Part shown: positions 74 to 62,538 of the stretch, one piece after another | How the letters are laid out: every line of letters starts with the position of its first letter | How positions within the stretch are numbered: the stretch's first letter is position 1 | NCBI GenBank assembly: GCA_040880465.1 | Contig: JBBDIK010000007.1 | Span: 40,342-104,341, forward strand | DNA length: 64,000 nucleotides | DNA from: Actinomycetota bacterium | GTDB taxonomy: Bacteria > Actinomycetota > UBA4738 > JBBDHU01 | Direction: 5' to 3' | Program-made: the position numbers and the translations under genes | Notes under the pieces: generated by a model | What the model saw: only the letters and a program-made list of their open reading frames with translations | What the model was told of the DNA's origin: nothing | Databases searched by the model: none

Positions 74-450
74 CAGGAGAACACGCCGAACGTCAACAGG
101 ACGATGACGTAGACCGTCGCGGCCAGTGCGAGTCCGGTCGCGAAGATCCGGCCGTAGCCGGGGTTATCGAACCGCACGTGCATGAACCACAGCACGACGA
201 GCGCGAACTTGACGACCATCATCCCGAGCAGCAGGAAGACCAGCAGGTCGCGCAGCGATTCGACGTAATAGACACCGACTTCCGCGGCGGTGATCAGGCC
301 GAGGATCGCGGCGATCGTCACGTACTGCTTGGGGCCCGGATGATGGGTCTCGGTGTGCTCTCGGGCCCGCAACGGGGTCCCGACCCCCGAACCTTCCTCT
401 TCGGCGACGGGCGCCGGCGGCTTCGTCTTCTCGGGCTCCTGCCGCATCAT
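73..450 (-). CDS. ctaF: cytochrome c oxidase subunit IV (small hydrophobic COX4_pro-type subunit), 125 aa
   Basis: Internal ATG-ATG start at 450 inside ORF 73..999. Sequence HPGPKQYVTIAAILGLITAAEVGVYY...VVKFALVVLWFMHV is typical of prokaryotic subunit IV. The start overlaps the ctaE stop. Confidence 0.8.
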   Translation of the reverse strand: MMRQEPEKTKPPAPVAEEEGSGVGTPLRAREHTETHHPGPKQYVTIAAILGLITAAEVGVYYVESLRDLLVFLLLGMMVVKFALVVLWFMHVRFDNPGYGRIFATGLALAATVYVIVLLTFGVFS

Positions 451-1076
451 GAGAACGTCACCTGCCCGCTGGAAGGATCGGGGATCAGATAGATCACCGT
501 GAAGATGATGATCCAGACGATGTCGACGAAGTGCCAGTACAGCCCAACCATCTCGACACCGAGTGCCTTCTCCTTCGGCAGCTTCCCGAGGAACGACAGC
601 CCGACCAGCGTGAGCAGCATCAGGATTCCGACCGTCACGTGCGCCCCGTGGAAACCGGTCAGGGTGAAGAAGGTGCTTCCGAACAGGTTCGTGTTGAGCT
701 TCAGGCCCTCCTTGGCGAACGTCGCGAACTCGTAGATCTGGCCACCGATGAAGGTCACCCCGAGCAGCGCGGTCGTAAGCGTCCAGATGCGGAACCTGCG
801 GATCTCGCCTCGCTGGAGGGCGGACAGGGACAGCACCATCGTGAGCGAGCTGAACAGCAGGACGAACGAGCTGACCGACGTGTAGGGGATGTCGAAGACG
901 TCGTGCGGATACGGCCCGACCGTGCTCCGGCCGCGGTAGAGCAGGTACGTCGAGATCAGCGCGCCGAAGAGCAAGCACTCGGACGAGAGGAAGATCCACA
1001 TCGCGATCTTGGTGGTGGGCAAGCCGGTGGAGGTGTGCTCCTCGTGTTCACCCGACAGGACCCTGGCCTCTTCCAC
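447..1076 (-). CDS. ctaE: cytochrome c oxidase subunit III
   Basis: Motifs WIFLSSECLLFGALI, FFTLTGFHGAHVTVG and YWHFVDIVWI. The GTG at 1076 lies 2 nt after the ctaD stop, so I prefer it over the ORF-track start at 1217, which would overlap ctaD. Confidence 0.85.
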   Translation of the reverse strand: MEEARVLSGEHEEHTSTGLPTTKIAMWIFLSSECLLFGALISTYLLYRGRSTVGPYPHDVFDIPYTSVSSFVLLFSSLTMVLSLSALQRGEIRRFRIWTLTTALLGVTFIGGQIYEFATFAKEGLKLNTNLFGSTFFTLTGFHGAHVTVGILMLLTLVGLSFLGKLPKEKALGVEMVGLYWHFVDIVWIIIFTVIYLIPDPSSGQVTFS

Positions 1077-1078
1077 CG

Positions 1079-2998
1079 CTACTCCTCCACCGACGGCTCG
1101 AGGACCCAGCCGTAGAGTCCGACGATCATGATGGCACCGCCGAGGAACGCCATCCACCAGCCGTACAGGATGCCGTAGCCGATCAAGGGGAGTCCGGCCG
1201 CGGCGACGATCGGCCAATAGGACGGACTCGGCAGATGGATCCCATGGCCACCTCCGTGATCCGCATCAGCTCCCTCGCCGTGGTCGCCCGCATGGCCGCC
1301 GCCGTACGAACCTTTGGCCGCGGCGTCCGATGCCCCCGACTGCACCGGGACGAGTTCGCCGTCCTTCGAGTGCGCGTACTTGCGGTACCAGAACTCATCC
1401 AGGGAGTGGACGACTGGCACTTCCTCGAAGTTGTACTCGGGCGGCGGCGACGAGGTGGTCCACTCCAGCGTTCGTGCGTCCCAGGGGTCGTTGCCGGCGT
1501 CCTTCGGCTTTCGGAACGTGGCGATCACGTTCCAGGTGAAGACGGCCATGCCGACCGCCATCAGGAGCGCACCGACGGTGGCGACCATGTTCATGAAGTC
1601 CCACCCGTGACCGGCCGGGTAGGTGTAGATCCGTCGCGGCATCCCTTGCATGCCCAGGAGGTGGAACGGCCCGAACGTCAGGTTCATGCCGATGAAGAAC
1701 AACCAGAAGTGGATCTTCCCGAGCTTCTCGTTGAGCAGGCGCCCGAACGCTTTCGGGAACCAGTAGTACACGCCGCCGAAGAGCCCGAAGATGGCGCCGC
1801 CGAAGAGCACGTAGTGGAAGTGCGCGACGACGTAGTACGTGTCGTGCTGCTGGTAGTCCGACGGCACGACGGCGTGCGTGACGCCCGACAACCCGCCGAT
1901 CACGAAGAGCGCGACGAACCCGATCGCGAACAGCATCGGTGTCGGGAATCGGATGTCGCCCTTCCAGAGCGTTCCGAGCCAGTTGAAGATCTTCACGCCG
2001 GTCGGCACGGCGATGAACATCGTCGTGATGGCGAACGCGGAGTTCGCGACCGGTCCGAGCCCGTCCGTGAACATGTGGTGCGCCCACACGCCCCACCCCA
2101 TGAACCCGATCGCGATCCCCGAGAACACGATGAACGCGTATCCGAACAATGGACGCCGCGAGAACACCGGCAGGATCTCGGAGACGATCCCCATCGCCGG
2201 CAGCACCAGGATGTAGACCTCGGGATGTCCGAAGAGCCAGAACAGGTGCTGCCACAGGATCGGGTCGGCGCCGTGCCCCGCATCGAAGAAGAACGTTCCG
2301 AATTGCCGGTCGAAGAGGAGCTCGACCAGCGCGATCGTGATGACGGGCAAAGCAAAGATCAGCAGGAACTGCACCACCAGCGTCATCCAGATGAACACCG
2401 GCATCCGCATCAGCGTCATCCCGGGCGCGCGCATGTTGATGATCGTGACGGCCAGGTTCACGGCCGAGACGGTAGAGGCGATCCCCAGGATGATCAGGCC
2501 GATCGCGTAGAAGCTCATATTGTCGCCCGCGGTAGCGACACTGTTCGGCGCGTAGCCGAACCACCCGCCGTTCGGCGCCCCGCCGAGAACGAAACTCGAG
2601 TACAAGAAGATGCCGCCGAACAAGAAGATCCAGTAACTCAACGCGTTCAGTCGCGGGAACGCGACGTCCCGCGTGCCGATCATCAATGGCACGAGGTAGT
2701 TCGTGAACGCGGCGCCGAGGGGCATGACGACCAGGAAGATCATGGTCAGTCCGTGCATCGTGAACATCTGGTTGTACGTGGCGGCGTCGAGCACCTGTCC
2801 GTTCGGCTGCGCGAGCTGGGCGCGGATCAACATCGCCTCGAAGCCGCCCACGATCAGGAAGATCAGTGCTGTCGCGCCGTAGAGGATGCCGATCTTCTTG
2901 TGATCGACCGTGACGATCCAGCCCCAGACACCGCCGGTGGCGGTCGGCCGACGGAACAGACCCCCGGACCTCTGGTTCGGCATCGCTGCGGTCGACAT
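1079..2998 (-). CDS. ctaD: cytochrome c oxidase subunit I (heme-copper oxidase) with C-terminal His/Gly-rich linker and two extra TM helices
   Basis: 639 aa. Motifs WFFGHPEVYILVLP, HHMF and VAHFHYVL match the canonical HCO subunit I. Confidence 0.95.
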   Translation of the reverse strand: MSTAAMPNQRSGGLFRRPTATGGVWGWIVTVDHKKIGILYGATALIFLIVGGFEAMLIRAQLAQPNGQVLDAATYNQMFTMHGLTMIFLVVMPLGAAFTNYLVPLMIGTRDVAFPRLNALSYWIFLFGGIFLYSSFVLGGAPNGGWFGYAPNSVATAGDNMSFYAIGLIILGIASTVSAVNLAVTIINMRAPGMTLMRMPVFIWMTLVVQFLLIFALPVITIALVELLFDRQFGTFFFDAGHGADPILWQHLFWLFGHPEVYILVLPAMGIVSEILPVFSRRPLFGYAFIVFSGIAIGFMGWGVWAHHMFTDGLGPVANSAFAITTMFIAVPTGVKIFNWLGTLWKGDIRFPTPMLFAIGFVALFVIGGLSGVTHAVVPSDYQQHDTYYVVAHFHYVLFGGAIFGLFGGVYYWFPKAFGRLLNEKLGKIHFWLFFIGMNLTFGPFHLLGMQGMPRRIYTYPAGHGWDFMNMVATVGALLMAVGMAVFTWNVIATFRKPKDAGNDPWDARTLEWTTSSPPPEYNFEEVPVVHSLDEFWYRKYAHSKDGELVPVQSGASDAAAKGSYGGGHAGDHGEGADADHGGGHGIHLPSPSYWPIVAAAGLPLIGYGILYGWWMAFLGGAIMIVGLYGWVLEPSVEE

Positions 2999-3006
2999 CT
3001 ACGTCC

Positions 3007-4149
3007 TCACGTCAGGCTCTGGAGGTAGGCGATGAGCGCCTCGACCTCGTCGGGCTTCAGATGATAGTTGGGCATCCATGAGCCGGGCTTGACGGCTGGG
3101 GGGTCTTCGAGCCACGCCTTCATCGCCTCGGCGTTGAAGCTGCCGTCCTCGTTGTACGTCGGGAACATGCACCCTGCGAAGCAATCGCGGCTCGCGAAAT
3201 GAGTCAGGTCCGGACCCTGCACCGCGGCCGCGCCCTCGACGCCCTTGATCGCGTGGCAGCCGATACAGGAGCCGTTCGCGAAGTCCTGCATCCCCTTGTC
3301 AGCGAGGCTCCCGGCCCCCGGCACGGCCGCTTCGGCCTGCTGCTCCGTGAGCCAGGCGCTGAACTCCTCCGGGCTCACCGCCTTGACCTGGAACCGCATG
3401 TTCGCGTGCGACCAGTCGCAATATTCGGCACACTGACCCGGGTACAGACCCGGTTCGTCCGCGCTGAGGTACATCTCGTTCGTGCGGCCGGGGACGACAT
3501 CCTGCTTGCCGGCCAGGCGCGGCACCCAGAAGGCGTGGATCACGGCGTTCCCGAGGTTCGGGGCGGGGTCGACGCACGGAGCGCCCAGGGCGGGGCCGCT
3601 CGCCTGCGGACCGACGCCTCCATCGGGGTTCGCCGTCTTCGGGTTCGCCGCGCCGCTCGCGCCAGCCGCGCAGAGGCGGATCGAGATCTGCGTCCCGGTC
3701 GGTATGACCAGTTCGTTGGCTGTGACGAGCTCCTGGTCCGGGTACCGGAACTCCCACCACCACTGGTGACCGACCACATCAACCTGGATGACGTCGGGTC
3801 CCGTGGGCGTCTCGGCGAGGTCCCAGATGCCGGTGATAGTCGGGACGGTGATCACGGCGAGCAACACCGCCGGCGCGATCGTCCACCCGATCTCGAGCTT
3901 GGTGTTGCCATGGACGCCGGACGGCTTCGCGCCCGGACGGTGACGGTACTTCCAAACGAAGAGGACGAGCGCCCCTTCGACCACGACGAAAACGGCGACC
4001 GCGAGCCAGAAGACGAACTGGAACAGGTCCTCCTGCTTCTGGGCAACGGGACCGGCGGGGTTCAGGGTGCTCTGGTCCAGGGAGTCGCTGCACGCGGCCA
4101 GCAGGAGGACCGCCACGATCGAGCCTCCGATGAGCTTCAGCTTGCGCAC
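3007..4149 (-). CDS. ctaC: cytochrome c oxidase subunit II fused to a C-terminal cytochrome c domain (caa3-type)
   Basis: Lipoprotein-like signal (LLAAC). CuA site HAFWVP...CAEYCDWSHANM. C-terminal heme c motif CIGCH. GTG start preceded by GGGAAGGAAG. Confidence 0.9.
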   Translation of the reverse strand: MRKLKLIGGSIVAVLLLAACSDSLDQSTLNPAGPVAQKQEDLFQFVFWLAVAVFVVVEGALVLFVWKYRHRPGAKPSGVHGNTKLEIGWTIAPAVLLAVITVPTITGIWDLAETPTGPDVIQVDVVGHQWWWEFRYPDQELVTANELVIPTGTQISIRLCAAGASGAANPKTANPDGGVGPQASGPALGAPCVDPAPNLGNAVIHAFWVPRLAGKQDVVPGRTNEMYLSADEPGLYPGQCAEYCDWSHANMRFQVKAVSPEEFSAWLTEQQAEAAVPGAGSLADKGMQDFANGSCIGCHAIKGVEGAAAVQGPDLTHFASRDCFAGCMFPTYNEDGSFNAEAMKAWLEDPPAVKPGSWMPNYHLKPDEVEALIAYLQSLT

Positions 4150-4166
4150 GGCATGCTTCCTTCCCT

Positions 4167-4224
4167 GAACGTGGCCCCAACCTTGGCCCCGAACGTGGCC
4201 CCGGGCGCCGCCCCGGGCGCTCCC
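4167..4224. repeat. tandem 12-nt periodic repeat in the resC-ctaC spacer
   Basis: Units are GAACGTGGCCCC / AACCTTGGCCCC / GAACGTGGCCCC / GGGCGCCGCCCC / GGGCGCTCCC. Units 1 and 3 are identical and every unit ends in CCC(C). Confidence 0.6.
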
Positions 4225-4273
4225 TGGGGCTCAGGCGGGCACACGATAGCAGCCCGATCCAGGCACGACCCGC

Positions 4274-5299
4274 TCACGACACCCCCGCGTACGAATGGAG
4301 CCCGACGATGAAGATGTTGACCACGTAGTAGGTGAACAGGACCACCACGAACCCGACCGAGGCGAGGAGAGCCGCGCGGGTTCCCTTCCACCCAGCCGTC
4401 GCGCGCGCATGCAGGTAGCCGGCGAACACGACCCAGGTGATGAATGCCCACACCTCCTTCGGATCCCAACCCCAGTACCGCCCCCAGGCCCGCTGAGCCC
4501 AGATCGCGCCTGCGATCACCGCGAACGTCCAGACGACGAATCCAACGGCGATCGTCCGGTACGCGAGCCGGTCCAGAGTCTCGGACGGGGGCAGGATCCC
4601 GCGCTTCGCGAGCAGCGGCGAACCCGCGCCCGGCGGAGCTGTGGCGGCCGCGGCCACGGTAGCCGTCGCCGTTGCGGCCATCGATGCAGACCCGACCGGC
4701 TCGTCCGCACCGGGCTCGAATCCCGGCGGGTCGTCCGCCGTTGCCCCCTCGGACTCGCCTCGCGGCACCCGGGTCGCACCGATCGCCGCTGCCCCCCTCC
4801 GCTCCTGTCGAACCTTGACCAGGAAGAGAGGACTCAGTACCCCCGCACCGAGCATGAGCAATGCGGAAGCGGTGATGACCAGGATCACGTGGATCATCAG
4901 CCAGGCGGAGTCGAGCGCCGGAACGAGCGGTCCCGGGTCGCGGTAGAGCGCCGTGCCGGCGATCAACATCGTGGCGACGGCGGCCAGCAGCACGAAGCCG
5001 GCAACCGTCCTGACCTTGTATCGGAGCTCCACAACGAGCTTCTCGACAGCCACCATGATCAGCGCAACGATCGAGGAGTACTCGTACATGTTCCCCCACG
5101 GCAGGTGACCCGCCGCGATCCCGCGCGTGACGACCGAAACCGCCTGCACCGCAAGCCCGGCCCACGACAGGACGTTCGCGATCTTCCAGGCGCCTTCCCG
5201 TCGGAAACCGAGGTAGTAGAAGTCGAACACCATCGCGACGGCGTAGAGGCAAAGCGCGGTCCAGAACGCGATGTTCGAGATCTGTGAGAGTTGCTCCAC
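4274..5299 (-). CDS. ccsB: cytochrome c biogenesis protein CcsB/ResC (System II heme handling)
   Basis: W-rich motif WGRYWGWDPKEVWAFITW, multiple TM helices, and an Ala/Pro-rich insertion. Adjacent to resB. Confidence 0.9.
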   Translation of the reverse strand: MEQLSQISNIAFWTALCLYAVAMVFDFYYLGFRREGAWKIANVLSWAGLAVQAVSVVTRGIAAGHLPWGNMYEYSSIVALIMVAVEKLVVELRYKVRTVAGFVLLAAVATMLIAGTALYRDPGPLVPALDSAWLMIHVILVITASALLMLGAGVLSPLFLVKVRQERRGAAAIGATRVPRGESEGATADDPPGFEPGADEPVGSASMAATATATVAAAATAPPGAGSPLLAKRGILPPSETLDRLAYRTIAVGFVVWTFAVIAGAIWAQRAWGRYWGWDPKEVWAFITWVVFAGYLHARATAGWKGTRAALLASVGFVVVLFTYYVVNIFIVGLHSYAGVS

Positions 5300-5300
5300 G

Positions 5301-6848
5301 TCAGGTCCTCTCGGTCTCGCTTTCGATCGCGCTCGCGTGGTCGGTCGCGCGCGCCATGGCCTCCACGAGGCGGGCGAACTCCTCTTCGAACTCCGACCGC
5401 CGCTGGAGCGCGAACCCGCCGACCTTCAACACCGAACCATGCGGTGCAGGGTCCGCCCGAACCCAGACCCGGCGCCGCGAGGAATAGAGGGCAGGCAGGA
5501 GACCGCCGAGGATCAGGATCGCCGCCAGCAGCATGATACCGACGCCGGCATCGCGCCCTACCTGCAGGACCGTGTACTCCCGCAGCTCCGGGAACGACAC
5601 CGTGACCCCACCCCCGATCCTGACGTCCTCCCCGAGTGGCACGATGCCAGATCTTCGCTCCTGCAACCCGACGGGATCGAGCTCGGTCACGCGCTGGGCG
5701 ACATCCAGGCGAAGGTCACCCTCGAATACCCGGAGCGCCAGGACCGGGTGGCTCGGCTTCAGCACGGGGATCGGTTCATCCGTCATCTCCGAGACGAGCG
5801 CCGTCTCGGGGTCGGGCAGTAACCGGAACGCGACCCCCACCTGCGGACGCAGTGACGGAAGCTTGACCGCTCCGGTCCAGGGCATCGCCGCCTGGCTGAT
5901 CCCTTTCGGCGCTCGATCCTGTTCGAAGATCACCGGCCCCGAGAACAGGATCTCCCCGTCGGCATCGGTCACCTCGATCACAGGGGCCCACCCGTACCCG
6001 TACTGGTAGAAGTCGACACCGTCGACAGACCCCGGCGCGTTCAGCTCGATGTCGGCCGTCCCCGCGCTCGTCCCGTCTCCGTGGAGCAGCTCGGCCGTCG
6101 TCGTGAACTCCTGTGGGGTCCCGTCGGGCTCGTAGACAACGGTGAACTCCTCCACGCGCACTTGAGCCCCTGTGTGGTTCTCGTTGAAGAACCGGCCTTC
6201 TCGCGCGGTGCCGTCATAGTTCGCGTGGGCTTCGGTCCAGGTCGTCCCCTCGGGGATCACGGCATACCCGGTGAACCCGGTCCCCTTCCCGTAGAAGATG
6301 CCGATCACGATGAGGAAGAACGCCCAGTGGAACAGCAGGCTACCCGCCTCACGGGCGATACCCTTGTCCGCCGCGACCTGCGGCACCGCCCCACCGACGC
6401 GGTCCACCCGGAACCGCTTGCGGCGTAATATGTTCGCGGACCTGTCGAGGACCGTCCCCGGCGGCACCGCGACCGATCGTTCCACGTAGAGCCGCATGGA
6501 ATCCAACTCGCGCGCCGGTTGCGGACGGGTACGGAGCGTGCGCAGCAGCGCGCGGGTCCGCGGGAAGAGACACGCTGCTAGCGAGGTCAACAGGAGCGCG
6601 TAGATGAGCGTGAACCACCAGGAGCCGTACACGTCGAAGAGCCCCGTCGCCTCGTAGACCGTCGCGCGCAGCGGGTGATCGACGAACATCTGGCTGATCT
6701 TGTCGTCCGAGATCCCGACCTGCGGGATGAGGGAACCGGCCACGGCCCCCACCGCCAGCAGCAGCAGCAGGATCAGTGCCGTTCGCATCGATCGCAAGGA
6801 TCGCCACACGACGGCAACCGACTGCCGGACCGTCGGGCGAGCACTCAC
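5301..6848 (-). CDS. resB: cytochrome c biogenesis protein ResB/Ccs1
   Basis: N-terminal VWRSLRSMRTALILLLLLAVGAVAGSLIPQ is typical of ResB. I chose the GTG at 6848 so the gene does not overlap ccdA. The ORF track extends to 6935. Confidence 0.85.
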   Translation of the reverse strand: MSARPTVRQSVAVVWRSLRSMRTALILLLLLAVGAVAGSLIPQVGISDDKISQMFVDHPLRATVYEATGLFDVYGSWWFTLIYALLLTSLAACLFPRTRALLRTLRTRPQPARELDSMRLYVERSVAVPPGTVLDRSANILRRKRFRVDRVGGAVPQVAADKGIAREAGSLLFHWAFFLIVIGIFYGKGTGFTGYAVIPEGTTWTEAHANYDGTAREGRFFNENHTGAQVRVEEFTVVYEPDGTPQEFTTTAELLHGDGTSAGTADIELNAPGSVDGVDFYQYGYGWAPVIEVTDADGEILFSGPVIFEQDRAPKGISQAAMPWTGAVKLPSLRPQVGVAFRLLPDPETALVSEMTDEPIPVLKPSHPVLALRVFEGDLRLDVAQRVTELDPVGLQERRSGIVPLGEDVRIGGGVTVSFPELREYTVLQVGRDAGVGIMLLAAILILGGLLPALYSSRRRVWVRADPAPHGSVLKVGGFALQRRSEFEEEFARLVEAMARATDHASAIESETERT

Positions 6849-6864
6849 TCGGTCACCGCCATCC

Positions 6865-7602
6865 TCAGAGCGCCGGCGTGAAGCCGCGGACCCATTGAAG
6901 GACCGGATTGAGGAGCTCCAGCCACAGACCCGCAACCATCAGGACACCGATGAACACCATCAAGCCACCAGAGACCCCGGCGATCCATCGGTAGTTGCGC
7001 TTGATCCAGCTCAGACCGCGAACCATCTTGCCGAGCCCGAGCCCGACCAGCAGGAACGGCAGTCCGAGCCCCACGGAATAGACGAAGAGCAGCCACCCGC
7101 CCCGCACCGAACCGCCTTGCGCGCCTGCGATCGCGATGACGCCCGCCAGAACGGGTCCGATACACGGCGTCCAACCTGCAGCGAACGCCATCCCCAAGGG
7201 GAACGCCCCGGCTCGCCCCGGCTTGACCTTCGCCAAGAAGGGTCGGCGCTCGGCGTAGAGGCCTGGGTTCCCGAGGCGAAGGGCGTACAAGATCATGACC
7301 ACCCCGAACCCGAGGATGACGAGGCCGGCTAGGCGCAGGCCCCACTCGGAGCGGAAGATGGGCACGAAGACTCTGCTTGCAGCCCCGATCACCGTGAACA
7401 CGGCTGAGAATCCACCGATGAAGAGCAATACCGGGACGAGCGGGCGCGGTTCCTCCTCCGTCTGAGAGCCGGTCACGAAGGCGACATAGCCCGGGACCAG
7501 CGGGAACACGCATGGCGACGCGAAGGAGACGATCCCGGCCAGGAACGCCAATGCCGGCGCCCACCAGGAGGTGAGGCCCGTCTGTACGAGGTCGGCGACC
7601 AC
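6865..7602 (-). CDS. ccdA: cytochrome c biogenesis thiol-disulfide transporter CcdA (DsbD family)
   Basis: FLAGIVSFASPCVFPLVPGY and WTPCIGPVL motifs, six TM helices. Confidence 0.9.
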   Translation of the reverse strand: MVADLVQTGLTSWWAPALAFLAGIVSFASPCVFPLVPGYVAFVTGSQTEEEPRPLVPVLLFIGGFSAVFTVIGAASRVFVPIFRSEWGLRLAGLVILGFGVVMILYALRLGNPGLYAERRPFLAKVKPGRAGAFPLGMAFAAGWTPCIGPVLAGVIAIAGAQGGSVRGGWLLFVYSVGLGLPFLLVGLGLGKMVRGLSWIKRNYRWIAGVSGGLMVFIGVLMVAGLWLELLNPVLQWVRGFTPAL

Positions 7603-7766: not shown

Positions 7767-8132
7767 ATGAAAGAACGAGTCGAGACGTTCCTCAAGGAAT
7801 TCGAATGGACCTGGACGACCGCCGTCCTCGCGTCCCTAGGGCTCACGTTCATCATGCTGATCAGCGCGGTGATCGTCCCGTCGTTCATCATCTACTTCTC
7901 CGAGCAGCAGTTCGGGTGGGCCGGCGCCACCGACCTCGAGGGGTTCATCAACGAGCTCGTCTCCGACGGGCCCTTCAACCCGGAGATGATGAAGGAGGTC
8001 AGGGACGCTGTCGCGATGGGGGTCACCACCGTCGCGTTCGCGATGCCCTTCGTCATCGCCACCATCCTCCAGAACAAGCGACGCAAGCTCCGCGGCGGAT
8101 CCGACAAGCGTCCGACCGGGGGGTACCGCTAG
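7767..8132 (+). CDS. small two-TM membrane protein, first gene of the bc-type operon
   Basis: 121 aa with two hydrophobic helices. Its stop TAG directly abuts the GTG of the ferredoxin gene. Confidence 0.6.
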   Translation: MKERVETFLKEFEWTWTTAVLASLGLTFIMLISAVIVPSFIIYFSEQQFGWAGATDLEGFINELVSDGPFNPEMMKEVRDAVAMGVTTVAFAMPFVIATILQNKRRKLRGGSDKRPTGGYR

Positions 8133-8528
8133 GTGCCCTTCACGAAGACTGAGGTCGAGATCCACGGCGACTACCTGGTCGAGGGCGTCGACGCCGCCTG
8201 GCTGCAGCAGGGCGTCAGGTCACCCAAGCACCTCATGCTCGACCCGGAGCCCTGCATCCTGTGCCGGGCCTGCGAAGACGTGTGCCCGTGGAACTGCATC
8301 TTCATGCTCGACCCAGGGATCGTCGAGGGGACGCAGGACCCGACCGTCGGCGCCGACGTCCACAGTGCGACCGCCATCTTCGTGGTCGACGACAACGCCT
8401 GCACCCGCTGCTCCGTATGCGTGGAGCGCTGCCCCAGCGATTGCCTGTACTATGCGCGGCTGCCGGAGGACACCGGCGGGAAGCGTGAGATGGGGTCCGT
8501 TCCGACAACCCAGGCCGCCGCGGAGTAG
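8133..8528 (+). CDS. 2x[4Fe-4S] ferredoxin-type protein
   Basis: Two complete CxxCxxCxxxCP motifs: CILCRACEDVCP and CTRCSVCVERCP. GTG start immediately follows the upstream stop. Confidence 0.8.
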   Translation: MPFTKTEVEIHGDYLVEGVDAAWLQQGVRSPKHLMLDPEPCILCRACEDVCPWNCIFMLDPGIVEGTQDPTVGADVHSATAIFVVDDNACTRCSVCVERCPSDCLYYARLPEDTGGKREMGSVPTTQAAAE

Positions 8529-8543
8529 GAGAACGACAGCGAC

Positions 8544-9314
8544 GTGAAGATCAAGCCGCCATCGCCGAGCCACATGTTCGACCGCGTGCGCGAGTCGGAG
8601 TTCTGGAAGTCGATCTTCCGGCCGGGATCGTTGTTCCGCAAGGGGTACAAGGACACCAGCCGCGACCGCGCGATGGCGGCCATGAACAACGTCCTCTACC
8701 ACCTGCACCCGGTGAAGGTGAAGCGGCACGGCCTCAAGCTCACCTACACGTTCTGCCTGGGCGGGCTGTCGTTCTTCCTGTTCATCCTGCTGACGATCAC
8801 CGGCATCTATCTGATGTTCTTCTACCGGCCGACGGCCACGATCGCCTCATCACAGGCCTATTCCGACATGCAGAACATCACGACGTCCGTGTTCTTCGGC
8901 GACATGGTCCGCAACCTGCACCGGTGGGGCGCCCACCTCATGGTGTTCACCGTCACACTCCACATGGCACGGGTGTTCTATACGGGCGCGTACAAGCCGC
9001 CCCGGGAGTTCAACTGGGTCGTCGGTGTCGTCCTGCTGTTCCTGACCTTGGGATTGTCGTTCACCGGCTACTTGCTGCCGTGGGACCAGCTCTCGATCTG
9101 GGCGGTCACCGTCGGGACGAGCCTCGCGGCGTACTCGCCGCTGATCGCCAAGCAGGCGAACTTCCTCTTGCTCGGGGGCGCTATCGTCGGCCCCGAGACG
9201 TTGCTGCGTTGGTACGTGCTGCACGTGATCGCGTTGCCGTTCGTCACCGTCCTGTTCCTCTCCGTGCACTTCTGGCGGATCCGCAAGGACGGCGGCATCT
9301 CGGGACCACTGTAA
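8544..9314 (+). CDS. cytochrome b6-type protein (N-terminal cytochrome b domain only, split cytochrome b)
   Basis: Heme-ligand helices RNLHRWGAHLMVFTVTLHMARVF and RWYVLHVIALPFVTVLFLSVHF. Also carries a TFCLGG motif. The protein ends after helix D. Confidence 0.9.
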   Translation: MKIKPPSPSHMFDRVRESEFWKSIFRPGSLFRKGYKDTSRDRAMAAMNNVLYHLHPVKVKRHGLKLTYTFCLGGLSFFLFILLTITGIYLMFFYRPTATIASSQAYSDMQNITTSVFFGDMVRNLHRWGAHLMVFTVTLHMARVFYTGAYKPPREFNWVVGVVLLFLTLGLSFTGYLLPWDQLSIWAVTVGTSLAAYSPLIAKQANFLLLGGAIVGPETLLRWYVLHVIALPFVTVLFLSVHFWRIRKDGGISGPL

Positions 9315-9322
9315 GGAGCGGG

Positions 9323-10165
9323 ATGGCAGAAGCGCCGGAGATGGACCAGGGGGTCTTCGAGTCGACGCTCGAGGCCGAGCTGGCCAAGGGTACCGACCGC
9401 CGCGTGGCCGAGGGGCGCGCGAGATCGGCCGGGATACGCGCGTACCGGAAGGTCCACGGAGGCGGTGAGGGAGCCGCCGCGCCGGCCGCGACTTCGGCCG
9501 TCCCCTCGACGCCGGACGCGGGAAGTGCCGTCCCATCCCCAGCCGCCTCTCCAGTGCCCGCGCCCGCTGCTGCCGCCGCCGCGGTCGCCGTAGCCGCTCC
9601 GGCCCCCGGGGTTCCGCGTCAGGCCCCGCCGCCGACCGGGAAACCACCGTCGCCGGCCAAGCCCGGTGCGCCCGACAAGCATCGGCTGCTGGCGCTCGTC
9701 CAGCCCGAAGGTGTCCAGGCCGTCGAACGCGACCAAGGCGACAGGGCGAACACGTTCCCGCACCTGTTCATCGAGGAGTTCATCGCGCTGTTCGTCCTCC
9801 TCGCGTTCCTCACGATCTACTCCACGTTCCTGAACGCGCCGCTGCGGGAACTGGCCAACCCGAACCTGACCCCGAACCCCTCGAAGGCCCCGTGGTACTT
9901 CATGGGCCTCCAAGAGCTCCTCCGCTACTTCCACCCCATGGTGGCCGGCATCATCATCCCGACGTTCATCCTGGTTGGGCTCGGCGCCGTCCCCTACGTC
10001 GACCGAAATCCCAGCACCCGTCCGGGCGACCGCAAGCTCGCGATCACCCTGTTCACGATCCTGTTCATGTTCGGGGCAACCTTGACGATCATCGGTTCGT
10101 TCTTCCGGGGCCCGGGCTACAACTGGATCTGGCCATGGACCCAAGGCGTCTACTTCGACCTATGA
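9323..10165 (+). CDS. cytochrome b C-terminal domain protein (b6f subunit-IV-like) with a long Ala/Pro-rich N-terminal extension
   Basis: The ATG at 9323 is in frame within ORF 8924..10165. PSKAPWYFMGLQELLRY corresponds to the PEWY-type Qo motif. Three TM helices. Confidence 0.85.
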   Translation: MAEAPEMDQGVFESTLEAELAKGTDRRVAEGRARSAGIRAYRKVHGGGEGAAAPAATSAVPSTPDAGSAVPSPAASPVPAPAAAAAAVAVAAPAPGVPRQAPPPTGKPPSPAKPGAPDKHRLLALVQPEGVQAVERDQGDRANTFPHLFIEEFIALFVLLAFLTIYSTFLNAPLRELANPNLTPNPSKAPWYFMGLQELLRYFHPMVAGIIIPTFILVGLGAVPYVDRNPSTRPGDRKLAITLFTILFMFGATLTIIGSFFRGPGYNWIWPWTQGVYFDL

Positions 10166-10920
10166 CGATGCTCGCCGCTCTGTCCACGGGAACCCTCGTC
10201 GCGATCGTCGTCGTGGTGCTCTTCGACATCTTCGTGGTCGTCCTCGCGGTGTCGTTCTTGCGCGCCCGCCGGGCGGCGCGCGCCATGGAGGAGGCGGCCG
10301 CGGGTGGCCCGCTTCCGGACGCCGAGCAGGGCCTCGCCGCTCCGGCAGCCGCGAAGGCTCCCAAGCTCGTCTCGCGCCGGGAGTTCTTCCGCAAGTCCTG
10401 GCTCGCATCGCTCGGCGTGTTCGCGGCGGCATTCGGAGCTTCGACGATCGCGTTCCTGTGGCCGAACCTCAAAGGTGGCTTCGGCGGAACCTTCGAGGTG
10501 GGGACCGTCGAGGACATCGTTTCGCAGATCAACGCGACCGGCCAGCCCTACTACTACGGCGCCGGACGCTTCTACATCGTTCAGTACGACGGGACGGGGG
10601 TCGACGAAGATCTCGGCGTCGACTACGAAACGCAAGAAGTGCTGGCCGATGGGCTGATGGCGCTCTACCAGCGGTGCGTACACCTGGGCTGCCGGGTGCC
10701 GTTCTGCCAGGTCTCCCAGTGGTTCGAATGCCCGTGCCACGGCTCCAAGTACAGCCGCGCGGGTGAGTACAAGCAGGGCCCGGCCCCGCGTGGTCTCGAC
10801 CGGTTCACGATCAAGGTTGACGGCGGCCAGGTGATGGTCGACACCTCCGTCGTGCAGCTAGGTCCGCCACGAGGCACCGACACGACCAACCAGAACCCGG
10901 AAGGACCGTTCTGCGTCTGA
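10162..10920 (+). CDS. Rieske 2Fe-2S subunit
   Basis: CVHLGC and CPCHGS boxes, RREFF Tat-like motif, and an extra N-terminal TM helix. The ATG overlaps the upstream stop (ATGA). Confidence 0.9.
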   Translation: MTMLAALSTGTLVAIVVVVLFDIFVVVLAVSFLRARRAARAMEEAAAGGPLPDAEQGLAAPAAAKAPKLVSRREFFRKSWLASLGVFAAAFGASTIAFLWPNLKGGFGGTFEVGTVEDIVSQINATGQPYYYGAGRFYIVQYDGTGVDEDLGVDYETQEVLADGLMALYQRCVHLGCRVPFCQVSQWFECPCHGSKYSRAGEYKQGPAPRGLDRFTIKVDGGQVMVDTSVVQLGPPRGTDTTNQNPEGPFCV

Positions 10921-11615
10921 TGCTTGCCCTTTCACAAACCGCGGGGATCGTGATGGCCGGGATCGGCCTGGCCATCGTCGTCGTCATCGTTGCCCTCGTC
11001 GTCGCCCGCGTCCGGCACGCCGAGGACAAGGGGCCGGACATCCCCCCGGCGATGAGTCCCGGACCATCCGATCCGAACCTCGAGAAGCCGATCCTCGAAC
11101 GTCTCCAGGGATGGGGCGTGATCCTGGTCGCGTTCATGGCGGTCTGGATCGCCGCGTACTGGTTCTTCGAGCCCGGAACGAACAAGAAGCAGGAGGAACA
11201 TCGCGTCGAATCGGCCACCGAGCACGGCGCCCACATCGTCGAGCTCTTCGATGAACACTCCAACCCGGCCGGCGCCGGCTGCGTCCAGTGTCACGGCCCC
11301 GAGCTACGCGGGCAGGAGTTCGTTCGCGGCGGCGACATCTTCCGATCGGCAAACCTAACCACCGTCTGTGAGCGCCTCACCATGGAGGAGATGTTCCAGA
11401 CGATCGCAGAGGGCCGGGAGAGCGCCGGGATGCCCTCGTGGAGCGTCGAGTACAAGGGCGCGATGAACGATCAACAGATCATGGACGTGGTGCAGTACCT
11501 CGTGACGGTGAACGAGGAAACCGTACCGTTCGAGAAGAACAAGTGCATCAACGAGGAAGCCGCCTCGCCCGCCCCGGCACCATCGCCGGAAGCTTCTCCG
11601 ACGGAGGCGCCGTGA
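10920..11615 (+). CDS. membrane-anchored monoheme cytochrome c
   Basis: Single CVQCH heme motif with a distal Met region (AGMPSW), and two N-terminal TM helices. The start overlaps the Rieske stop. Confidence 0.85.
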   Translation: MLALSQTAGIVMAGIGLAIVVVIVALVVARVRHAEDKGPDIPPAMSPGPSDPNLEKPILERLQGWGVILVAFMAVWIAAYWFFEPGTNKKQEEHRVESATEHGAHIVELFDEHSNPAGAGCVQCHGPELRGQEFVRGGDIFRSANLTTVCERLTMEEMFQTIAEGRESAGMPSWSVEYKGAMNDQQIMDVVQYLVTVNEETVPFEKNKCINEEAASPAPAPSPEASPTEAP

Positions 11616-12421
11616 TGCGGACGCTCGCGCTCTTCGACTGGCCGTTGTTCATCAAGGGAACGCTGACGGTCATCATGGCCTTCATCCTGTTCATCGGCAG
11701 CGTCTACCTCCTGCTCTCGGCGGTCATGGGCAAGAAGCTCGGCTACCTCGTCCTTGCGGTGTCGTTCTTCGGATGGATGGTCCTGCTCTCGGCGATCTGG
11801 GCGTTCGGGTTCTACTCGCAGGGTCTCGAAACCCCGGTCAACCTCGGCCCGAAGGGGGTCGAGCCCCACTGGCTACCGGTGGACGGCGGGTTCGAGGCCG
11901 CCTCCGCGACCTACCCGCTGGCGGACGCCTATCCGGGCGGCGAGTGGCGGGTCCCGAGCGAGAAGGAGGAAAGCTCGGTCGACCCGGTCTCGACGTCGAT
12001 CAAGGAGTTCCTCGCCACTCAAGCCAACGAAGAGGCCGGCATCGAGCCGGTCGAAGCCGTCCCTGAACACGCCAGCGGAACCCTTGAGACCGAGGCGCAG
12101 AGGGTCGAGGACGAACTGATCGAGTCGGGGCAGCACATGTTCATCCCTGAGGACTTCATCGTGCAGGACGTACGCTTCGCCACCGCAGAAGATGGCGAGA
12201 CGTCGCTGGCGGCCGCGCGCGTCTTCTACCAGGACGGCGGGCCGGAGTTCACCGTCGTCGCCTACCACGACAGCGGGAACGTCCCGATCTACTCGTACAT
12301 CTTCCTGGCCCTGTCGATCGTAGGGTTGCTGGTGCACCTGCCGTTCCTCGACCGGGTCGAGGCCAAGCGCAAGGACATCCTTACCGGCGGCACGGCGCCC
12401 GTGTGGCGCGGGCCGGCCTAG
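11615..12421 (+). CDS. multi-TM membrane protein with an acidic soluble domain, bc-operon associated, unknown function
   Basis: The ATG at 11615 overlaps the cytochrome c stop (GTGATG). Three N-terminal TM helices and one C-terminal TM helix. Confidence 0.6.
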   Translation: MRTLALFDWPLFIKGTLTVIMAFILFIGSVYLLLSAVMGKKLGYLVLAVSFFGWMVLLSAIWAFGFYSQGLETPVNLGPKGVEPHWLPVDGGFEAASATYPLADAYPGGEWRVPSEKEESSVDPVSTSIKEFLATQANEEAGIEPVEAVPEHASGTLETEAQRVEDELIESGQHMFIPEDFIVQDVRFATAEDGETSLAAARVFYQDGGPEFTVVAYHDSGNVPIYSYIFLALSIVGLLVHLPFLDRVEAKRKDILTGGTAPVWRGPA

Positions 12422-12442
12422 GCAAGAGGAGGAGCGGAGACG

Positions 12443-12547
12443 ATGCTGGGACTGGGACTGCTCGACCAAGGAAGCGTTCAGTTCATCCTGTTCGGCGTGA
12501 TGATCATCGCAACCTATATCGTGCTGAGATCCACCAGCGCGAAGTAG
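12443..12547 (+). CDS. 34-aa single-TM mini-protein (MLGLGLLDQGSVQFILFGVMIIATYIVLRSTSAK)
   Basis: Too short for the ORF track. AGGAGGAG Shine-Dalgarno at 12427..12434 lies 8 nt before the ATG. Sits 21 nt after the previous gene and has a hydrophobic core. Confidence 0.5.
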   Translation: MLGLGLLDQGSVQFILFGVMIIATYIVLRSTSAK

Positions 12548-12580: not shown

Positions 12581-13858
12581 TCACACCCGATCCAACGCCG
12601 TGTCCACCCCATCCAGGGTTCGCTCGACCTCGGCGCCGCCATGAGCCGCCGAGAGGAACCAACCCTCGTACCCCGACGGCGGCAGCAGGATGCCGGCTTC
12701 GAGCATCCCGTGGAAGAACTTCGCGTACCGCTCGTGGTCCGCCGCGCGCGCGCCTTCATAGTCCGTCACGTCGTCTCCCGTGAAGAAGAGGGAGAACAGG
12801 GATCCGACGCGGTTGATGCGGTGGTCGATGCCTCGTTCGGTGAGTCGTTCGCCGAGACCGTGACAGAGTGCGGCGGCCGAAACTTCGAGGCCTGCGTACG
12901 GTGGCTCGCTTCCGACGAGGCCGAGCGCGGCGAGACCCGCCGCGACGGCGACCGGGTTCCCGGAGAGCGTCCCCGCCTGATACACCGGACCCTCCGGAGC
13001 CAGCGCCTCCATGATGTCGGCGCGTCCCCCGAACGCCGCGCACGGCATCCCGCCTCCCATCACCTTGCCCATCGTCGTGAGGTCGGCCGCCACACCCAGC
13101 CGCTCCTGCGCGCCGCCCTCGCCGAGCCGGAACCCCGTGATCACCTCGTCGATGACCAGAAGCACGCCATGGGCAGTGCATGCCTCGCGCAAACCTTCGA
13201 GGAAGCCTTCCGCCGGAGGAACCACACCCATGTTCGCTGCGACGGGTTCGACGATGACACAGGCGATGTCGCCGCCGCGTTCGGCCAGCAGGACGCGAAC
13301 CGCCTCGAGGTCGTTGAACGGCACGACGAACGTGTCCTGCGCGGCCGCCCCCGTTACGCCCGGCGAGTCGGGCAGTCCGAACGTCGCGAGCCCCGATCCG
13401 GCCTTGGCGAGCAACGCGTCCGAGTGACCGTGATAGCAGCCTGCGAACTTCACGACCCCCGGCCGCCCGGTGGCTCCACGCGCCAGCCGGACCGCGCTCA
13501 TGCATGCCTCCGTCCCAGAGGACACGAGCCGGACGCGCTCGACGGTCGGAGCGAGTTCGACGATGCGCTCGGCGAGACGGATCTCCGCCTCGGTCGGGGC
13601 ACCGAAGGAAGTGCCCAGGCGAGCTGCCGCTTCGATGGCGGCAACGACTTCGGGGCGCGCGTGGCCGAACAGGAGTGCCCCCCAGGACTGGACGTAGTCC
13701 ACGTACTCCCGGCCGTCGACGTCGGTAACGAGGGCGCCACGGCCGGATGCCAGGAAGCGCGGAACGCCGCCAACCGATCCGTAGGCTCGGACCGGTGAAT
13801 TCACCCCGCCGGGGATGATCGCGCGCGCTTCATCGAACAACTCATCTGACCTGCTCAC
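12581..13858 (-). CDS. hemL: glutamate-1-semialdehyde 2,1-aminomutase
   Basis: N-terminal [19 protein letters not shown], a class-III aminotransferase fold, and length of 425 aa. Confidence 0.95.
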
Positions 13859-14914: not shown

Positions 14915-16179
14915 CTACGGTTCCTGGCCCGAACGGGGGGTCGGTTCATCCAGCCCGAAGAGTGCGCGCAAGGCATCCGCCTGGGCTTCGCTCTGCTTCG
15001 CGCGCACCATCGGCTCGTGCAGCAGCTTGTTGACGGCGCCCCGGAGTGTGGCTTCGACCGCCTCGCGCTGTTCCGAGGTCAGATCCCGGAGCTTGCCCGA
15101 CATGCGGCGGAGTTCGGCGACCCGGACCTGTTCGCCCCGATCGTGCAACGCCTTGAGCAACGGCGCGAGCGCCGCGTTCCGGCGCCAGGCGGCGAAGTTC
15201 GCCACCTCCTCCGCGATGACGGCGCGGGCCTTCGTGATCTCCCCCTCGTCGCCGCCGCCGATCGACCGCCCGAGATCGTCGACGTTCGCGACATCGACCC
15301 CGGGCAGGTCCCCGACGGCCGACTCCACATCACGGGGGACCGCCAGGTCCAGGAAGAACAATGGTCGGTCGGGTCGGCCGGCAAGCGCGGATGCGACCGT
15401 CTCCGCATCGACGATGGTGCCGCTCGCCCCTGTCGAGCACACCACCAAGTCCGCACGTGCAAGGGCGTCGGGTAGGTTGGCGAGCTGCTCGGCGCTCCCG
15501 CCCGTCCGGCGAGCCAGCGCTTGCGCGTGGCCGAGGCTCCGGTTGAGTACCTTCACGCGAACGACACCACGCTCTTGAAGTGCTTGCGCCGCAAGGGTCG
15601 CCATCTGCCCCGCGCCGAGCACCAGGAGCTCGATGTCGGCGAGATCACCCAGGGTTCGCTCCGCCAGCGCAAGGCCCGCTTCGATGAACGCCCCGGGGGC
15701 GGCGGAGATCCCGGTCTCGGCCCGAGCCCTGCGTCCGGCGCGTACCGCGTGCCGGAACAGCGAATCGAGCTGCGGCCTCGCGGCACCCTCCGCCTTAGCT
15801 TCGCGGATCGCCGCCCGAACCTGGGTCAGGATCTGCGGCTCACCGGCGACCATGGAATCGATCCCGGCAGCGACGTCGAAGAGATGCTCAGCGGCCTGGT
15901 CCTCGTAGTGCGAGTACAGCGGCTCGGCGAACACCTCGGGCGCTACTTCGCGCGACTCCGCGAGGAACCCCTTCAGTTCCTGGAACCCGGCATGGTAGCT
16001 CTCCACGTCCGCCACGATCTCCACACGGTTACAGGTCGACAGGATGACCGCGCCGTCGACCGACGGCAGCCGGGTGAGATGGTCGTAGGCCTTCTGAAGG
16101 TCTTCCTCCGGGAACCCGAGCTGCTCGAGCAGCTCGACCGGGGCGGATCGGGACGAGACACCGAGGACAGGATCGCCAT
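14915..16179 (-). CDS. hemA: glutamyl-tRNA reductase, with an apparent 1-nt frameshift within the first ~5 codons
   Basis: ORF 14915..16024 is HemA-like. The same frame continues upstream to 16186 as VLGVSSRSAPVELLEQL...ILSTCNRVEI, which includes the catalytic Cys motif, but has no start codon there. The only ATG (16179) is in another frame. Confidence 0.8.
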
Positions 16180-16186
16180 GCCGAGC

Positions 16187-16864
16187 TCAGACCACCGCCA
16201 TCGTCTTCGCCCGGCCCTGTTTCACGTCGTCCAGCGCGGCTTTGCGCTGTTCGTAGAACGCCAGGATCTGCAGTTCGATGGAGAGGTCGACCTTGCGAAG
16301 GGATACGTCGTCGGGAACGGTGATCACCGCGGGGGCGAAGTTCAGGATCGATTGGATGCCGGCCTCGACCATGCGGTCGGCCACCTCTTGGGCCACCTGC
16401 CCGGGCGTGCACACCATCCCGATCGCCACGTCGTGCTCTCGCACGATCCGCGGTAGGTTCTCCACGGCCTCGATCGGGAGCCCGTTCACCTTCTCCCCCA
16501 CTTTCTTCGGATCCGCGTCGATCAGCGCAACCACCTCGAAGCCGCGTTCGCCGAACCCCTTGTAGTTCGCGAGCGCGTGACCGAGGTTCCCGACGCCGGC
16601 GATCACGACCGGCCAGTGCTGGGTCAGGCCCAACTCCCGGCGGATCTGATGGATCAGGTAGGCCACGTCGTAGCCGACCCCGCGGGTTCCGTACGAGCCG
16701 AGGTGGGACAGATCCTTGCGGACCTTGGCCGAGTTCACCCCGGACGCATCCGCGAGGGTCTCCGACGAGACGACGCTGCCTCCATCCTCGGCCATCTCCA
16801 CGAGCGCGCGCAGGTACACGGGGAGGCGTCCGACGGTGGCTTCGGGGATGGGCCGCTTGCTCAT
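16187..16864 (-). CDS. rex: redox-sensing transcriptional repressor Rex
   Basis: MSKRPIPEATVGRLPVYLRAL... winged helix followed by a Rossmann GVGNLGHAL motif. Internal ATG at 16864. Confidence 0.9.
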   Translation of the reverse strand: MSKRPIPEATVGRLPVYLRALVEMAEDGGSVVSSETLADASGVNSAKVRKDLSHLGSYGTRGVGYDVAYLIHQIRRELGLTQHWPVVIAGVGNLGHALANYKGFGERGFEVVALIDADPKKVGEKVNGLPIEAVENLPRIVREHDVAIGMVCTPGQVAQEVADRMVEAGIQSILNFAPAVITVPDDVSLRKVDLSIELQILAFYEQRKAALDDVKQGRAKTMAVV

Positions 16865-16916
16865 GGATCCGGCACGGCGTTGTCGGGAGCCGTGAGGTTC
16901 ACCGAGGTTAGCGCAT

Positions 16917-16934
16917 ATGTGAAATCGTTCACAA
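16917..16934. promoter_or_regulatory. Rex operator upstream of rex-hemA (autoregulatory site)
   Basis: ATGTGAA-ATCG-TTCACAA. The core TGTGAA-N4-TTCACA is a perfect inverted repeat about 53 nt upstream of the rex ATG. Confidence 0.7.
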
Positions 16935-16953
16935 CCGCACAAGGTGAGGGCGT

Positions 16954-51815: not shown

Positions 51816-51851
51816 CGTGCGAATCGTACCCAGGAGGCGGCGCCCGAAGCG

Positions 51852-52997: not shown

Positions 52998-53032
52998 GAG
53001 GAGAATCCTCTCACACCGTCCCGCGGCGGAAT

Positions 53033-53048
53033 TAACCCGGGCGTAACC
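53033..53048. promoter_or_regulatory. GlnR-box-like motif upstream of glnA2
   Basis: TTAAC-N6-GTAAC has the same architecture as the site upstream of glnA. It lies 34 nt before the ATG. Confidence 0.35.
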
Positions 53049-53081
53049 GAAGGCGGGTCAGGCGCGGCTAGCCTGGCTCGC

Positions 53082-62527: not shown

Positions 62528-62538
62528 CGGAAAGCTAT

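Follow-up and report, generated by a model that had tools for sequence, protein, structure and literature searches.

In a 64-kb stretch of contig JBBDIK010000007.1 (hereafter the window, meaning the whole of the DNA analysed), from the uncultured actinobacterium represented by assembly GCA_040880465.1, eight consecutive genes, here called O1 to O8, form a real, tightly packed operon for a complex III with a split cytochrome b (Table 1). The second gene, O2, encodes a small protein predicted to be a ferredoxin with two [4Fe-4S] clusters, and it lies between a gene for a small membrane protein and the gene for cytochrome b6. We propose that the operon produces a menaquinol:cytochrome c oxidoreductase under Rex control, in which the bound ferredoxin serves as a cytoplasmic electron port and electrons flow inward; we put the chance that this reading is correct at about even. 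The evidence comes from the motifs and extensions of the subunits, from the conservation of gene order in relatives, and from comparison with Rieske/cytochrome b complexes described elsewhere.

Table 1. The operon, its putative operator and the neighbouring respiratory genes, in window coordinates.
Feature	Position	Strand	Length (aa)	Description
O1	7767-8132	+	121	No family (Pfam, NCBIfam)
O2	8133-8528	+	131	Ferredoxin; Fer4 families
O3	8544-9314	+	256	Cytochrome b6; PF00033, E = 1e-42
O4	9323-10165	+	280	Subunit IV; PF00032 Cytochrom_B_C
O5	10162-10920	+	252	Rieske protein; Rieske family
O6	10920-11615	+	231	Monoheme class I cytochrome c; CVQCH
O7	11615-12421	+	268	Multi-transmembrane protein; no family
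O8	12443-12547	+	34	Mini-protein; no family
Rex-operator-like perfect palindrome TTGTGAAGCGCTTCACAA	7664-7681			Exact match; divergent ccdA/O1 intergenic region
ccdA	6865-7602	-		System II cytochrome c maturation; divergent from operon
resB	5301-6935	-		System II cytochrome c maturation
ccsA	4274-5299	-		System II cytochrome c maturation
COX2 with fused cytochrome c	3007-4149	-		caa3-type oxidase
COX1	1079-2998	-	639	caa3-type oxidase
COX3	447-1217	-		caa3-type oxidase
hemL	12581-13858	-		Between operon and rex-like gene
hemA	14915-16024	-		Between operon and rex-like gene
rex-like gene	16187-16942	-		Redox-sensing repressor; one-mismatch Rex-type site (16917-16934) at 5' end

Operon structure

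A preliminary description of this DNA listed eight open reading frames (ORFs) at 7767-12547, and ORF calls together with Pfam and NCBIfam searches bear out both the ORFs, which are consecutive on the plus strand, and the identities given to them. The tight junctions that it had read are also present, with TAG abutting GTG at 8130-8135, ATGA at 10162-10165, TGATG at 10918-10922 and GTGATG at 11612-11617, while the remaining gaps, given as 8-21 nt, measure 15 nt before O3, 8 nt before O4 and 21 nt before O8. Ribosome-binding sequences of the GGAG type precede O3, O4 and O8 (AGGAGG in the case of O8), and the G+C content at third codon positions of the ORFs, 0.72-0.92, is that expected for real genes in a sequence of 67% GC. 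Junction lengths are kept in relatives, with medians of 12, 28, 10, -4, 14, -1 and 19 nt across the 81 loci described below.

O1, O2 and O3 (7767-9314) are in one frame, with TAG stops between them and five additional codons ahead of O3. This shared frame looks coincidental, since the gaps vary and the frame relation is not kept in relatives. Long "fusions" encountered in a library of representative sequences were frameshifted assemblies.

Core subunits

Cytochrome b6 (O3), of the four-helix kind, contains two pairs of histidine ligands, H126/H140 and H227/H242, for hemes bL and bH, as well as an FCLGG motif (Cys71) of the CxGG type, which in b6f and Firmicute complexes bears covalent heme ci/cn. 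FCLGG is present in 74/74 sequences and is probably the site of a predicted covalent heme ci/cn. The solved structure closest to O3 is the plastid/cyanobacterial b6 (E = 2e-46), and its best NCBIfam match, ExtP of Geobacter, is borderline (291.5 bits, cut-off 290). The protein is basic (pI 10.2), and so is its N-terminal extension of 50-65 residues, W.S.FRPGS.F..GY.D..R.R...N.VLYHLHPVKVKRH, which is invariant across four lineages and includes the segment YHLHPVKVKRH. This extension lies outside the known models: ExtP starts at residue 47, Bacillus-type b6 at residue 53 and the plastid b6 alignment at residue 68. His62 is likewise invariant and stands 9 residues ahead of the heme-ci cysteine (residues 1-72 of O3 are encoded at 8544-8760).

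Subunit IV (O4) has three transmembrane (TM) helices and, at the Qo site, the motif APWY (APWYF in 60/60 sequences), a variant with proline at the second position. It too begins with a cytoplasmic N-terminal extension, of ~140 residues, whose ends are conserved and whose Ala/Pro linker is variable. The Rieske protein (O5) carries the boxes CVHLGC and CPCHGSKY, the latter with the S-Y signature and found in 55/55 sequences. It also has a Tat-like SRREFF motif (RRxF in 54/55 sequences) and two N-terminal hydrophobic segments; both O5 and the membrane-anchored cytochrome c (O6) possess an N-terminal helical hairpin. A single CxxCH is present in 49/50 homologues of O6. The S-Y signature has been read as a Rieske potential of >260 mV (PMC4122944).

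The assignment to the b6c type rather than to the QcrCAB type, made in the preliminary description, holds: the QcrB model (NF050120) reaches 116.5 bits against a cut-off of 500, NF050121 reaches 29.9 bits against 275, and the cytochrome c has a single heme motif. Sequence evidence gives good support to the prediction of a b6c-type complex III of the APWY kind as the product of the operon.

The ferredoxin

By its motifs, O2 is a predicted 2x[4Fe-4S] dicluster ferredoxin. It carries two CxxCxxCxxxCP motifs, CILCRACEDVCP and CTRCSVCVERCP, which are invariant in 82/82 sequences. The term "soluble-type diferredoxin", used of it previously, fits in part: the dicluster motifs are there, but the protein differs from the plain soluble clostridial type in its N-terminal extension, in a conserved C-terminal tail and in the spacing of 49 residues between the two cluster motifs. 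The first ~35 residues are almost invariant within the clade (KTEV..DY....VD..WL..GV.SPKHLMLDP), and their core, DY....VD..WL, is common to the Acidimicrobiales. The tail (LYYARLPE..GG.R.M..VP.SQ) is likewise kept within the clade, and relatives in the alignment are 73-84% identical.

Known families resemble O2 weakly. NuoI/NdhI-like matches fall far under the cut-offs (NuoI, TIGR01971, 35.6 bits vs 113; ndhI, 26.5 bits vs 302), there are also weak matches to NapF-type and other maturation-type ferredoxin models, and the closest solved structures in a sequence search are polyferredoxin domains and NdhI, none of them close. PsaC and NuoI/NdhI are small dicluster ferredoxins like O2, with extensions that anchor them on the cytoplasmic or stromal side of a membrane complex. 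Their partner complex differs from the one proposed for O2, which falls below the family cut-offs, and the likeness is one of functional analogy only.

O2 is acidic (pI 4.4), with no hydrophobic segment or TM helix and with neither a signal nor a Tat motif. In b6f complexes, the N-termini of both b6 and subunit IV face the cytoplasmic side. From this topology and the absence of an export signal, the acidic ferredoxin would be expected on the same, cytoplasmic side as the extensions of b6 and subunit IV.

Conservation of gene order

Gene order in relatives was examined from two directions. For the ferredoxin-selected sample, one genome per species was scanned, which gave 394 stretches with a relative; the best 80 of these, together with locus L001, make up 81 loci, which were compared with the window proteins by tblastn. 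The best 80 relatives all belong to uncultured metagenome-assembled genomes labelled Actinomycetota or Actinomycetes bacterium, and one of them (L002) is 96% identical. Flanking the ferredoxin, O1 is present in 81/81 loci and b6 in 80/81, the order of the genes beyond b6 is unchanged in every contig that extends far enough, and ccdA lies divergently upstream in 80/81. Identity is highest for b6 (75-99%), followed by the ferredoxin (71-96%), subunit IV and the Rieske protein, and is lowest for cytochrome c, O7 and O1. The b6-selected sample came from a metagenome scan; at 66 of its loci the sequence ahead of b6 spans at least 500 nt, and in 65 of the 66 a ferredoxin gene is directly upstream. 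This sample leans toward b6 genes with the N-terminal extension, because the scan used two patterns, one of them located in that extension.

A profile search of 1.8 billion representatives returned 711 relatives, 103 of them at E <=1e-10. With clustering at 50% identity, the window type collapses to one main representative, and a larger second subfamily, with >2100 proteins, is that of the Acidimicrobiales. In this order the genes run O1-like, ferredoxin, b6, subunit IV, Rieske, a larger cytochrome c and O7-like. After the O7-like gene, a gap of 2-3 nt leads to nuoA and the rest of the complex I operon (L083, 13117-14654; L082, 13133-14517), and the ferredoxin-b6c genes and nuo may form one transcription unit in the Acidimicrobiales. 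Two further, divergent types (L085, 58% GC, 1030-7530; L086, 2656-7528) have the same order beside the System I genes ccmABCDEFH and COX1, while the clade of the window uses System II (ccdA, resB, ccsA) instead.

The preliminary description had tied its proposal to conservation of the ferredoxin and accessory ORFs next to the b6 genes, and this synteny is found in essentially all relatives, in both search directions and in at least four divergent lineages. Because the order is kept across several deep, mostly uncultured actinobacterial lineages, the ferredoxin is a probable cytoplasmic-side subunit. Short contigs with a ferredoxin-b6 pair at 73-77% identity also occur under the labels Planctomycetaceae (L008) and Methanomassiliicoccales (L075); these labels are probably the result of binning contamination.

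The same data bear on whether the ferredoxin is instead an independent soluble carrier, merely co-regulated through Rex and serving other enzymes. Its lack of a TM segment would suit such a role, as would the position of one ferredoxin relative (L089) away from any b6 gene. However, whichever gene the search started from, the ferredoxin and b6 genes are almost always adjacent, in lineages that otherwise have different neighbours; this argues for a closer tie, as do the conserved tight junctions with O1 and b6 and the extensions of O2, which are not seen in free ferredoxins. We regard an independent carrier as highly unlikely.

Accessory proteins

O1 has two TM helices and a conserved EWTW motif, and it ends in a tail (...RPTGGYR) that is basic, conserved and predicted to be cytoplasmic. 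It is homologous to the protein encoded upstream of the ferredoxin in the Acidimicrobiales (HHalign probability 95.9%, E = 6e-9), and we propose that it is a membrane partner or anchor of the ferredoxin. Along with the ferredoxin go the O1 family, the basic extension of b6 and the long extension of subunit IV.

O7 has 595 homologues, all hypothetical, and no Pfam match. In its AlphaFold2 (AF2) model (predicted local distance difference test, pLDDT, 84; predicted template modelling score 0.70), three TM helices are joined to a small alpha/beta domain, predicted to be on the outer (p) side. A Foldseek search of the PDB gave no fold match for this model (best E = 0.047, template modelling score <=0.14). 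The C-terminus of O7 is conserved, and all four lineages have recognisable homologues, which in the divergent ones occupy the same place in the gene order. O8 is a single-helix protein of 31-40 aa with a conserved pattern, detected by tblastn at 36 loci, all within the window's own clade.

Two-way synteny, the conservation rank of the ferredoxin, the co-conserved cytoplasmic extensions and charge complementarity together make it a strong inference that O1, the ferredoxin and O7 are subunits of the complex.

Genomic surroundings and Rex-type control

The palindrome TTGTGAAGCGCTTCACAA lies 104 nt upstream of O1, where 0.04 occurrences are expected by chance, and matches TTGTGAA-N4-TTCACAA, which we take to be the Rex operator consensus of Streptomyces. 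With up to two mismatches, the palindrome is found 73-180 nt upstream of O1 in 67/81 loci, and it is present also in Acidimicrobiales loci and in L086. The Rex-type site at the 5' end of the rex-like gene falls inside the called ORF, and the true rex start is therefore probably further downstream. With a putative operator and a rex-like gene both present, the operon probably belongs to the Rex regulon; the palindrome suggests that it is de-repressed as NADH/NAD+ rises, like other respiratory operons.

Rex control, which would tie the operon to redox state, suits a different role for a bound ferredoxin, namely that of a redox or oxygen sensor, a structural stabiliser or an electron buffer (for one two-electron reduction of menaquinone at Qi), with no exchange of electrons with the outside. 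Conserved extensions of a binding type would fit such a role, and a part in two-electron reduction of quinone has already been ascribed to heme ci/cn (PMC5600118). A two-cluster ferredoxin acting as a buffer on a Rieske/b complex would, however, be without precedent, and both full cluster motifs are invariant, as they would be in an electron wire. We consider a sensor, stabiliser or buffer quite improbable.

The operon sits in a respiratory island, and the remainder of the window is given to general metabolism. Upstream are System II cytochrome c maturation genes and a caa3-type oxidase (Table 1), whose arrangement is the same at locus L001. Residues 571-634 of COX1 match PF12270, the actinobacterial cytochrome c oxidase subunit IV, which suggests that COX1 is fused to a subunit-IV-like tail. 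Downstream, the minus strand carries, in addition to the heme synthesis genes, a gene for a PD40 beta-propeller protein and a glutaredoxin-like gene. No second complex III is encoded in the 64-kb window.

This neighbourhood raises the possibility that O1 and the ferredoxin are co-transcribed biogenesis factors, either for NapF-like loading or proof-reading of the Rieske protein or for insertion of heme ci or of a cluster. Genes for heme synthesis and for cytochrome c maturation adjoin the operon, a Tat-like motif is present in the Rieske protein, and O2 weakly matches NapF-type and maturation-type ferredoxins, all of which would be consistent with such a function; moreover, we know of no mechanism established for heme ci attachment outside cyanobacteria and plastids. 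On the other hand, conservation second only to that of b6 would be unusual for an assembly factor, and the cytoplasmic extensions conserved jointly in b6 and subunit IV suggest that the partner is permanent. To our knowledge, no such protein takes part in the maturation of Firmicute and plastid complexes. A role confined to biogenesis is, in our judgement, decidedly unlikely.

Elsewhere in the window, two glutamine synthetase genes are located at 45946-47376 and 50841-54407. The start of the latter ORF (1188 aa) is probably over-called, as its glutamine synthetase domains occupy only residues 766-1184. A 1024-aa protein with multicopper oxidase domains (57558-60632) is encoded next to tRNA genes at 57458-57532 and 62455-62614. 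An Rfam scan of the window found three tRNAs, all distant from the operon, and no rRNA.

Relationship to known Rieske/cytochrome b complexes

The APWY clade of Kao and Hunte is defined by a split cytochrome b, a CxGG motif and a mid-to-high-potential Rieske protein; its members include Rubrobacter, Patulibacter, Conexibacter and Ilumatobacter, and none had been characterised as of 2014 (PMC4122944). It corresponds approximately to subfamily G of Dibrova et al. (PMC5600118). The operon shares with this clade the split b6/subunit IV, the APWY and CxGG motifs and an S-Y Rieske protein within the Mid+ to High range, but its heme motif is FCLGG, whereas WCMGG is usual in the clade. The 2014 survey covered cytochrome b and Rieske sequences only and mentions no adjacent ferredoxin, O1 or O7, its sole 4Fe-4S remark concerning fusions in a different clade (PMC4122944). 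A split cytochrome b is less novel for the phylum than the preliminary description supposed, APWY and CxGG sequences having already been reported in deep Actinobacteria (PMC4122944); no characterised operon identical to this one was found in searches of the literature and of solved-structure sequences.

The second claim of novelty, that of a ferredoxin-bearing complex, likewise stands in part. A precedent for a cytoplasmic-side Fe-S module on a Rieske/b6-type core exists in the anammox complexes Kuste4569-4574 and Kustd1480-1485 (PMC12954380, PMC5600118), while no literature description of the small ferredoxin module was found. In a 2025 study, AlphaFold3 models of the anammox complexes link heme cN to FAD by way of four Fe-S clusters, and they also place an extra inter-monomer heme b on His43/His62, in the N-terminal part of cytochrome b (PMC12954380). 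His62 of O3 recalls this pair. In anammox bacteria the module is a large, FAD-containing NAD(P) oxidoreductase with ~4 clusters, accompanied by multiheme cytochromes c and found in an anaerobe. Here, in contrast, the module would consist of a 131-aa ferredoxin and a two-helix protein, the cytochrome c is monoheme and the genes lie beside an aerobic oxidase; the operon is not of the anammox type.

The Firmicute b6c complex (QcrABC of Bacillus) and the b6f complex resemble the system in their split cytochrome b, heme ci/cn cysteine, Rieske protein and small accessory subunits, and Bacillus also in having a caa3-type oxidase as partner. Their operons have no ferredoxin gene, however, their Qo motif is PDWY or PEWY, and they differ from the present system in its long cytoplasmic N-terminal extensions of b6 and subunit IV. 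In addition, Bacillus fuses subunit IV to cytochrome c, which are separate here (O4 and O6), and b6f uses cytochrome f. The actinobacterial QcrCAB complex, which is complex III of the CIII2CIV2 supercomplex, has in common with the system its phylum, presumed menaquinol oxidation and a probable coupling to an aa3-type oxidase, but its QcrB is unsplit, its QcrC is diheme, and it has neither a heme ci motif nor a ferredoxin.

Finally, ExtOPQ (Cbc5) of Geobacter combines a Rieske protein, a short cytochrome b and a small membrane protein, as here (PMC5877670). The ExtQ score, 56.5 bits, falls short of its cut-off of 150, the window contains no multiheme cytochrome, porin or rhodanese gene of the Ext kind, and the Ext cluster has no 4Fe-4S ferredoxin (PMC5877670). 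On these three counts, membership of the Ext group was rejected.

Proposed function and direction of electron flow

We suggest that the product of the operon is the menaquinol:cytochrome c oxidoreductase with which an uncultured Actinomycetota lineage respires. Its core would be formed by b6 (with hemes bL and bH and, probably, a covalent ci), subunit IV, a Rieske protein with a high-potential signature and an anchored monoheme cytochrome c, O6, which would pass electrons to the neighbouring caa3 oxidase. O1, the ferredoxin, O7 and O8 would most likely be lineage-specific extra subunits. The ferredoxin would sit on the cytoplasmic (n) face, bound as PsaC or NuoI are, and three elements would hold it there: the N-terminal extensions of b6 (basic) and of subunit IV (long), and the basic tail of O1. 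Its clusters could extend the low-potential chain past bH and ci, and the Qi site would thereby gain a cytoplasmic electron port. In the preferred, inward direction, electrons from low-potential cytoplasmic donors (for example, ferredoxin reduced by a 2-oxoacid:ferredoxin oxidoreductase) would pass through the clusters and heme ci to menaquinone. We infer the physical association, the proximity of cluster to heme and the direction of flow from conservation, topology and charge.

Inward flow is preferred because it would be downhill, would re-oxidise ferredoxin and would leave the Q cycle intact. Some Acidimicrobiia have no 2-oxoglutarate dehydrogenase and use a ferredoxin-dependent enzyme instead (PMC12008989), and ferredoxin-dependent 2-oxoacid oxidoreductases of this kind supply a rationale for such a flow.

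Several observations weigh against an inward-directed ferredoxin port. No 2-oxoacid:ferredoxin oxidoreductase is encoded in the 64-kb window. Natural fusions of O1 to the ferredoxin, or of the ferredoxin to b6, are absent from the 81 loci. The synteny has two exceptions: at L146 (3195-5127) a b6 gene has no ferredoxin upstream, and at L089 (672-2784) the gene after the ferredoxin relative encodes, instead of b6, a 511-aa protein without a family. The AF2 model of O2, built from an alignment of 30 sequences, has a pLDDT of 50 and is unusable. The complexes of Bacillus and plastids attach and use heme ci without such a ferredoxin. Finally, the S-Y Rieske signature argues at least equally for flow in the outward direction.

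If the flow were outward, the complex would carry out a quinol-driven bifurcation, in which one menaquinol electron would go to the Rieske protein, cytochrome c and the oxidase, and the other through bL, bH and ci to the clusters and on to a low-potential cytoplasmic acceptor. Such a mechanism has been proposed for NAD(P)H production by the anammox Rieske/b complexes (PMC5600118, PMC12954380), and cytoplasmic Fe-S modules are thought to work in this way in the same cytochrome b subfamily (PMC5600118, PMC12954380). The CPCHGSKY box is invariant, and S-Y is read as predicting >260 mV (PMC4122944); by the argument of PMC12954380, this signature in combination with a low-potential quinone would imply very low heme b potentials. 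The APWY motif at Qo, moreover, has no acidic residue of the usual kind (PMC4122944). Nevertheless, the ferredoxin has no catalytic domain and the operon encodes no acceptor, and outward flow would sacrifice the Q cycle in what is apparently the main aerobic complex III, located beside caa3 here and beside nuo in the Acidimicrobiales. We think outward flow unlikely; with the invariant S-Y signature and the anammox precedent in its favour, it stays a serious rival.

Implications

The role of heme ci/cn, and the direct injection of electrons from ferredoxin at the quinone-reduction site of b6-type complexes, have been debated since the b6f structures. In plants, the interaction with ferredoxin, if there is any, is transient and hard to capture. 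If our proposal is true, a direct test of the question would become possible in a respiratory complex of the b6 type whose operon supplies the ferredoxin and whose dedicated extensions hold it, and a ferredoxin wired to the complex would offer a minimal natural model of the debated route from ferredoxin to heme cn in b6f. It would also provide, beside anammox, a second and far simpler case of a Rieske/b enzyme with a cytoplasmic Fe-S outlet.

It is possible, although we advance this only tentatively, that the Acidimicrobiia, and several sister lineages of uncultured Actinomycetota from soil, groundwater and aquatic habitats, respire aerobically by means of an unrecognised class of Rieske/b6 complex, with a permanently bound two-cluster ferredoxin wired to heme ci and a Qi site that acts as a ferredoxin:menaquinone reductase or, with the flow reversed, as part of a bifurcating ferredoxin reductase in an aerobe. 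The picture of complex III would then be revised for a large and environmentally abundant part of the Actinomycetota that does not use the textbook QcrCAB.

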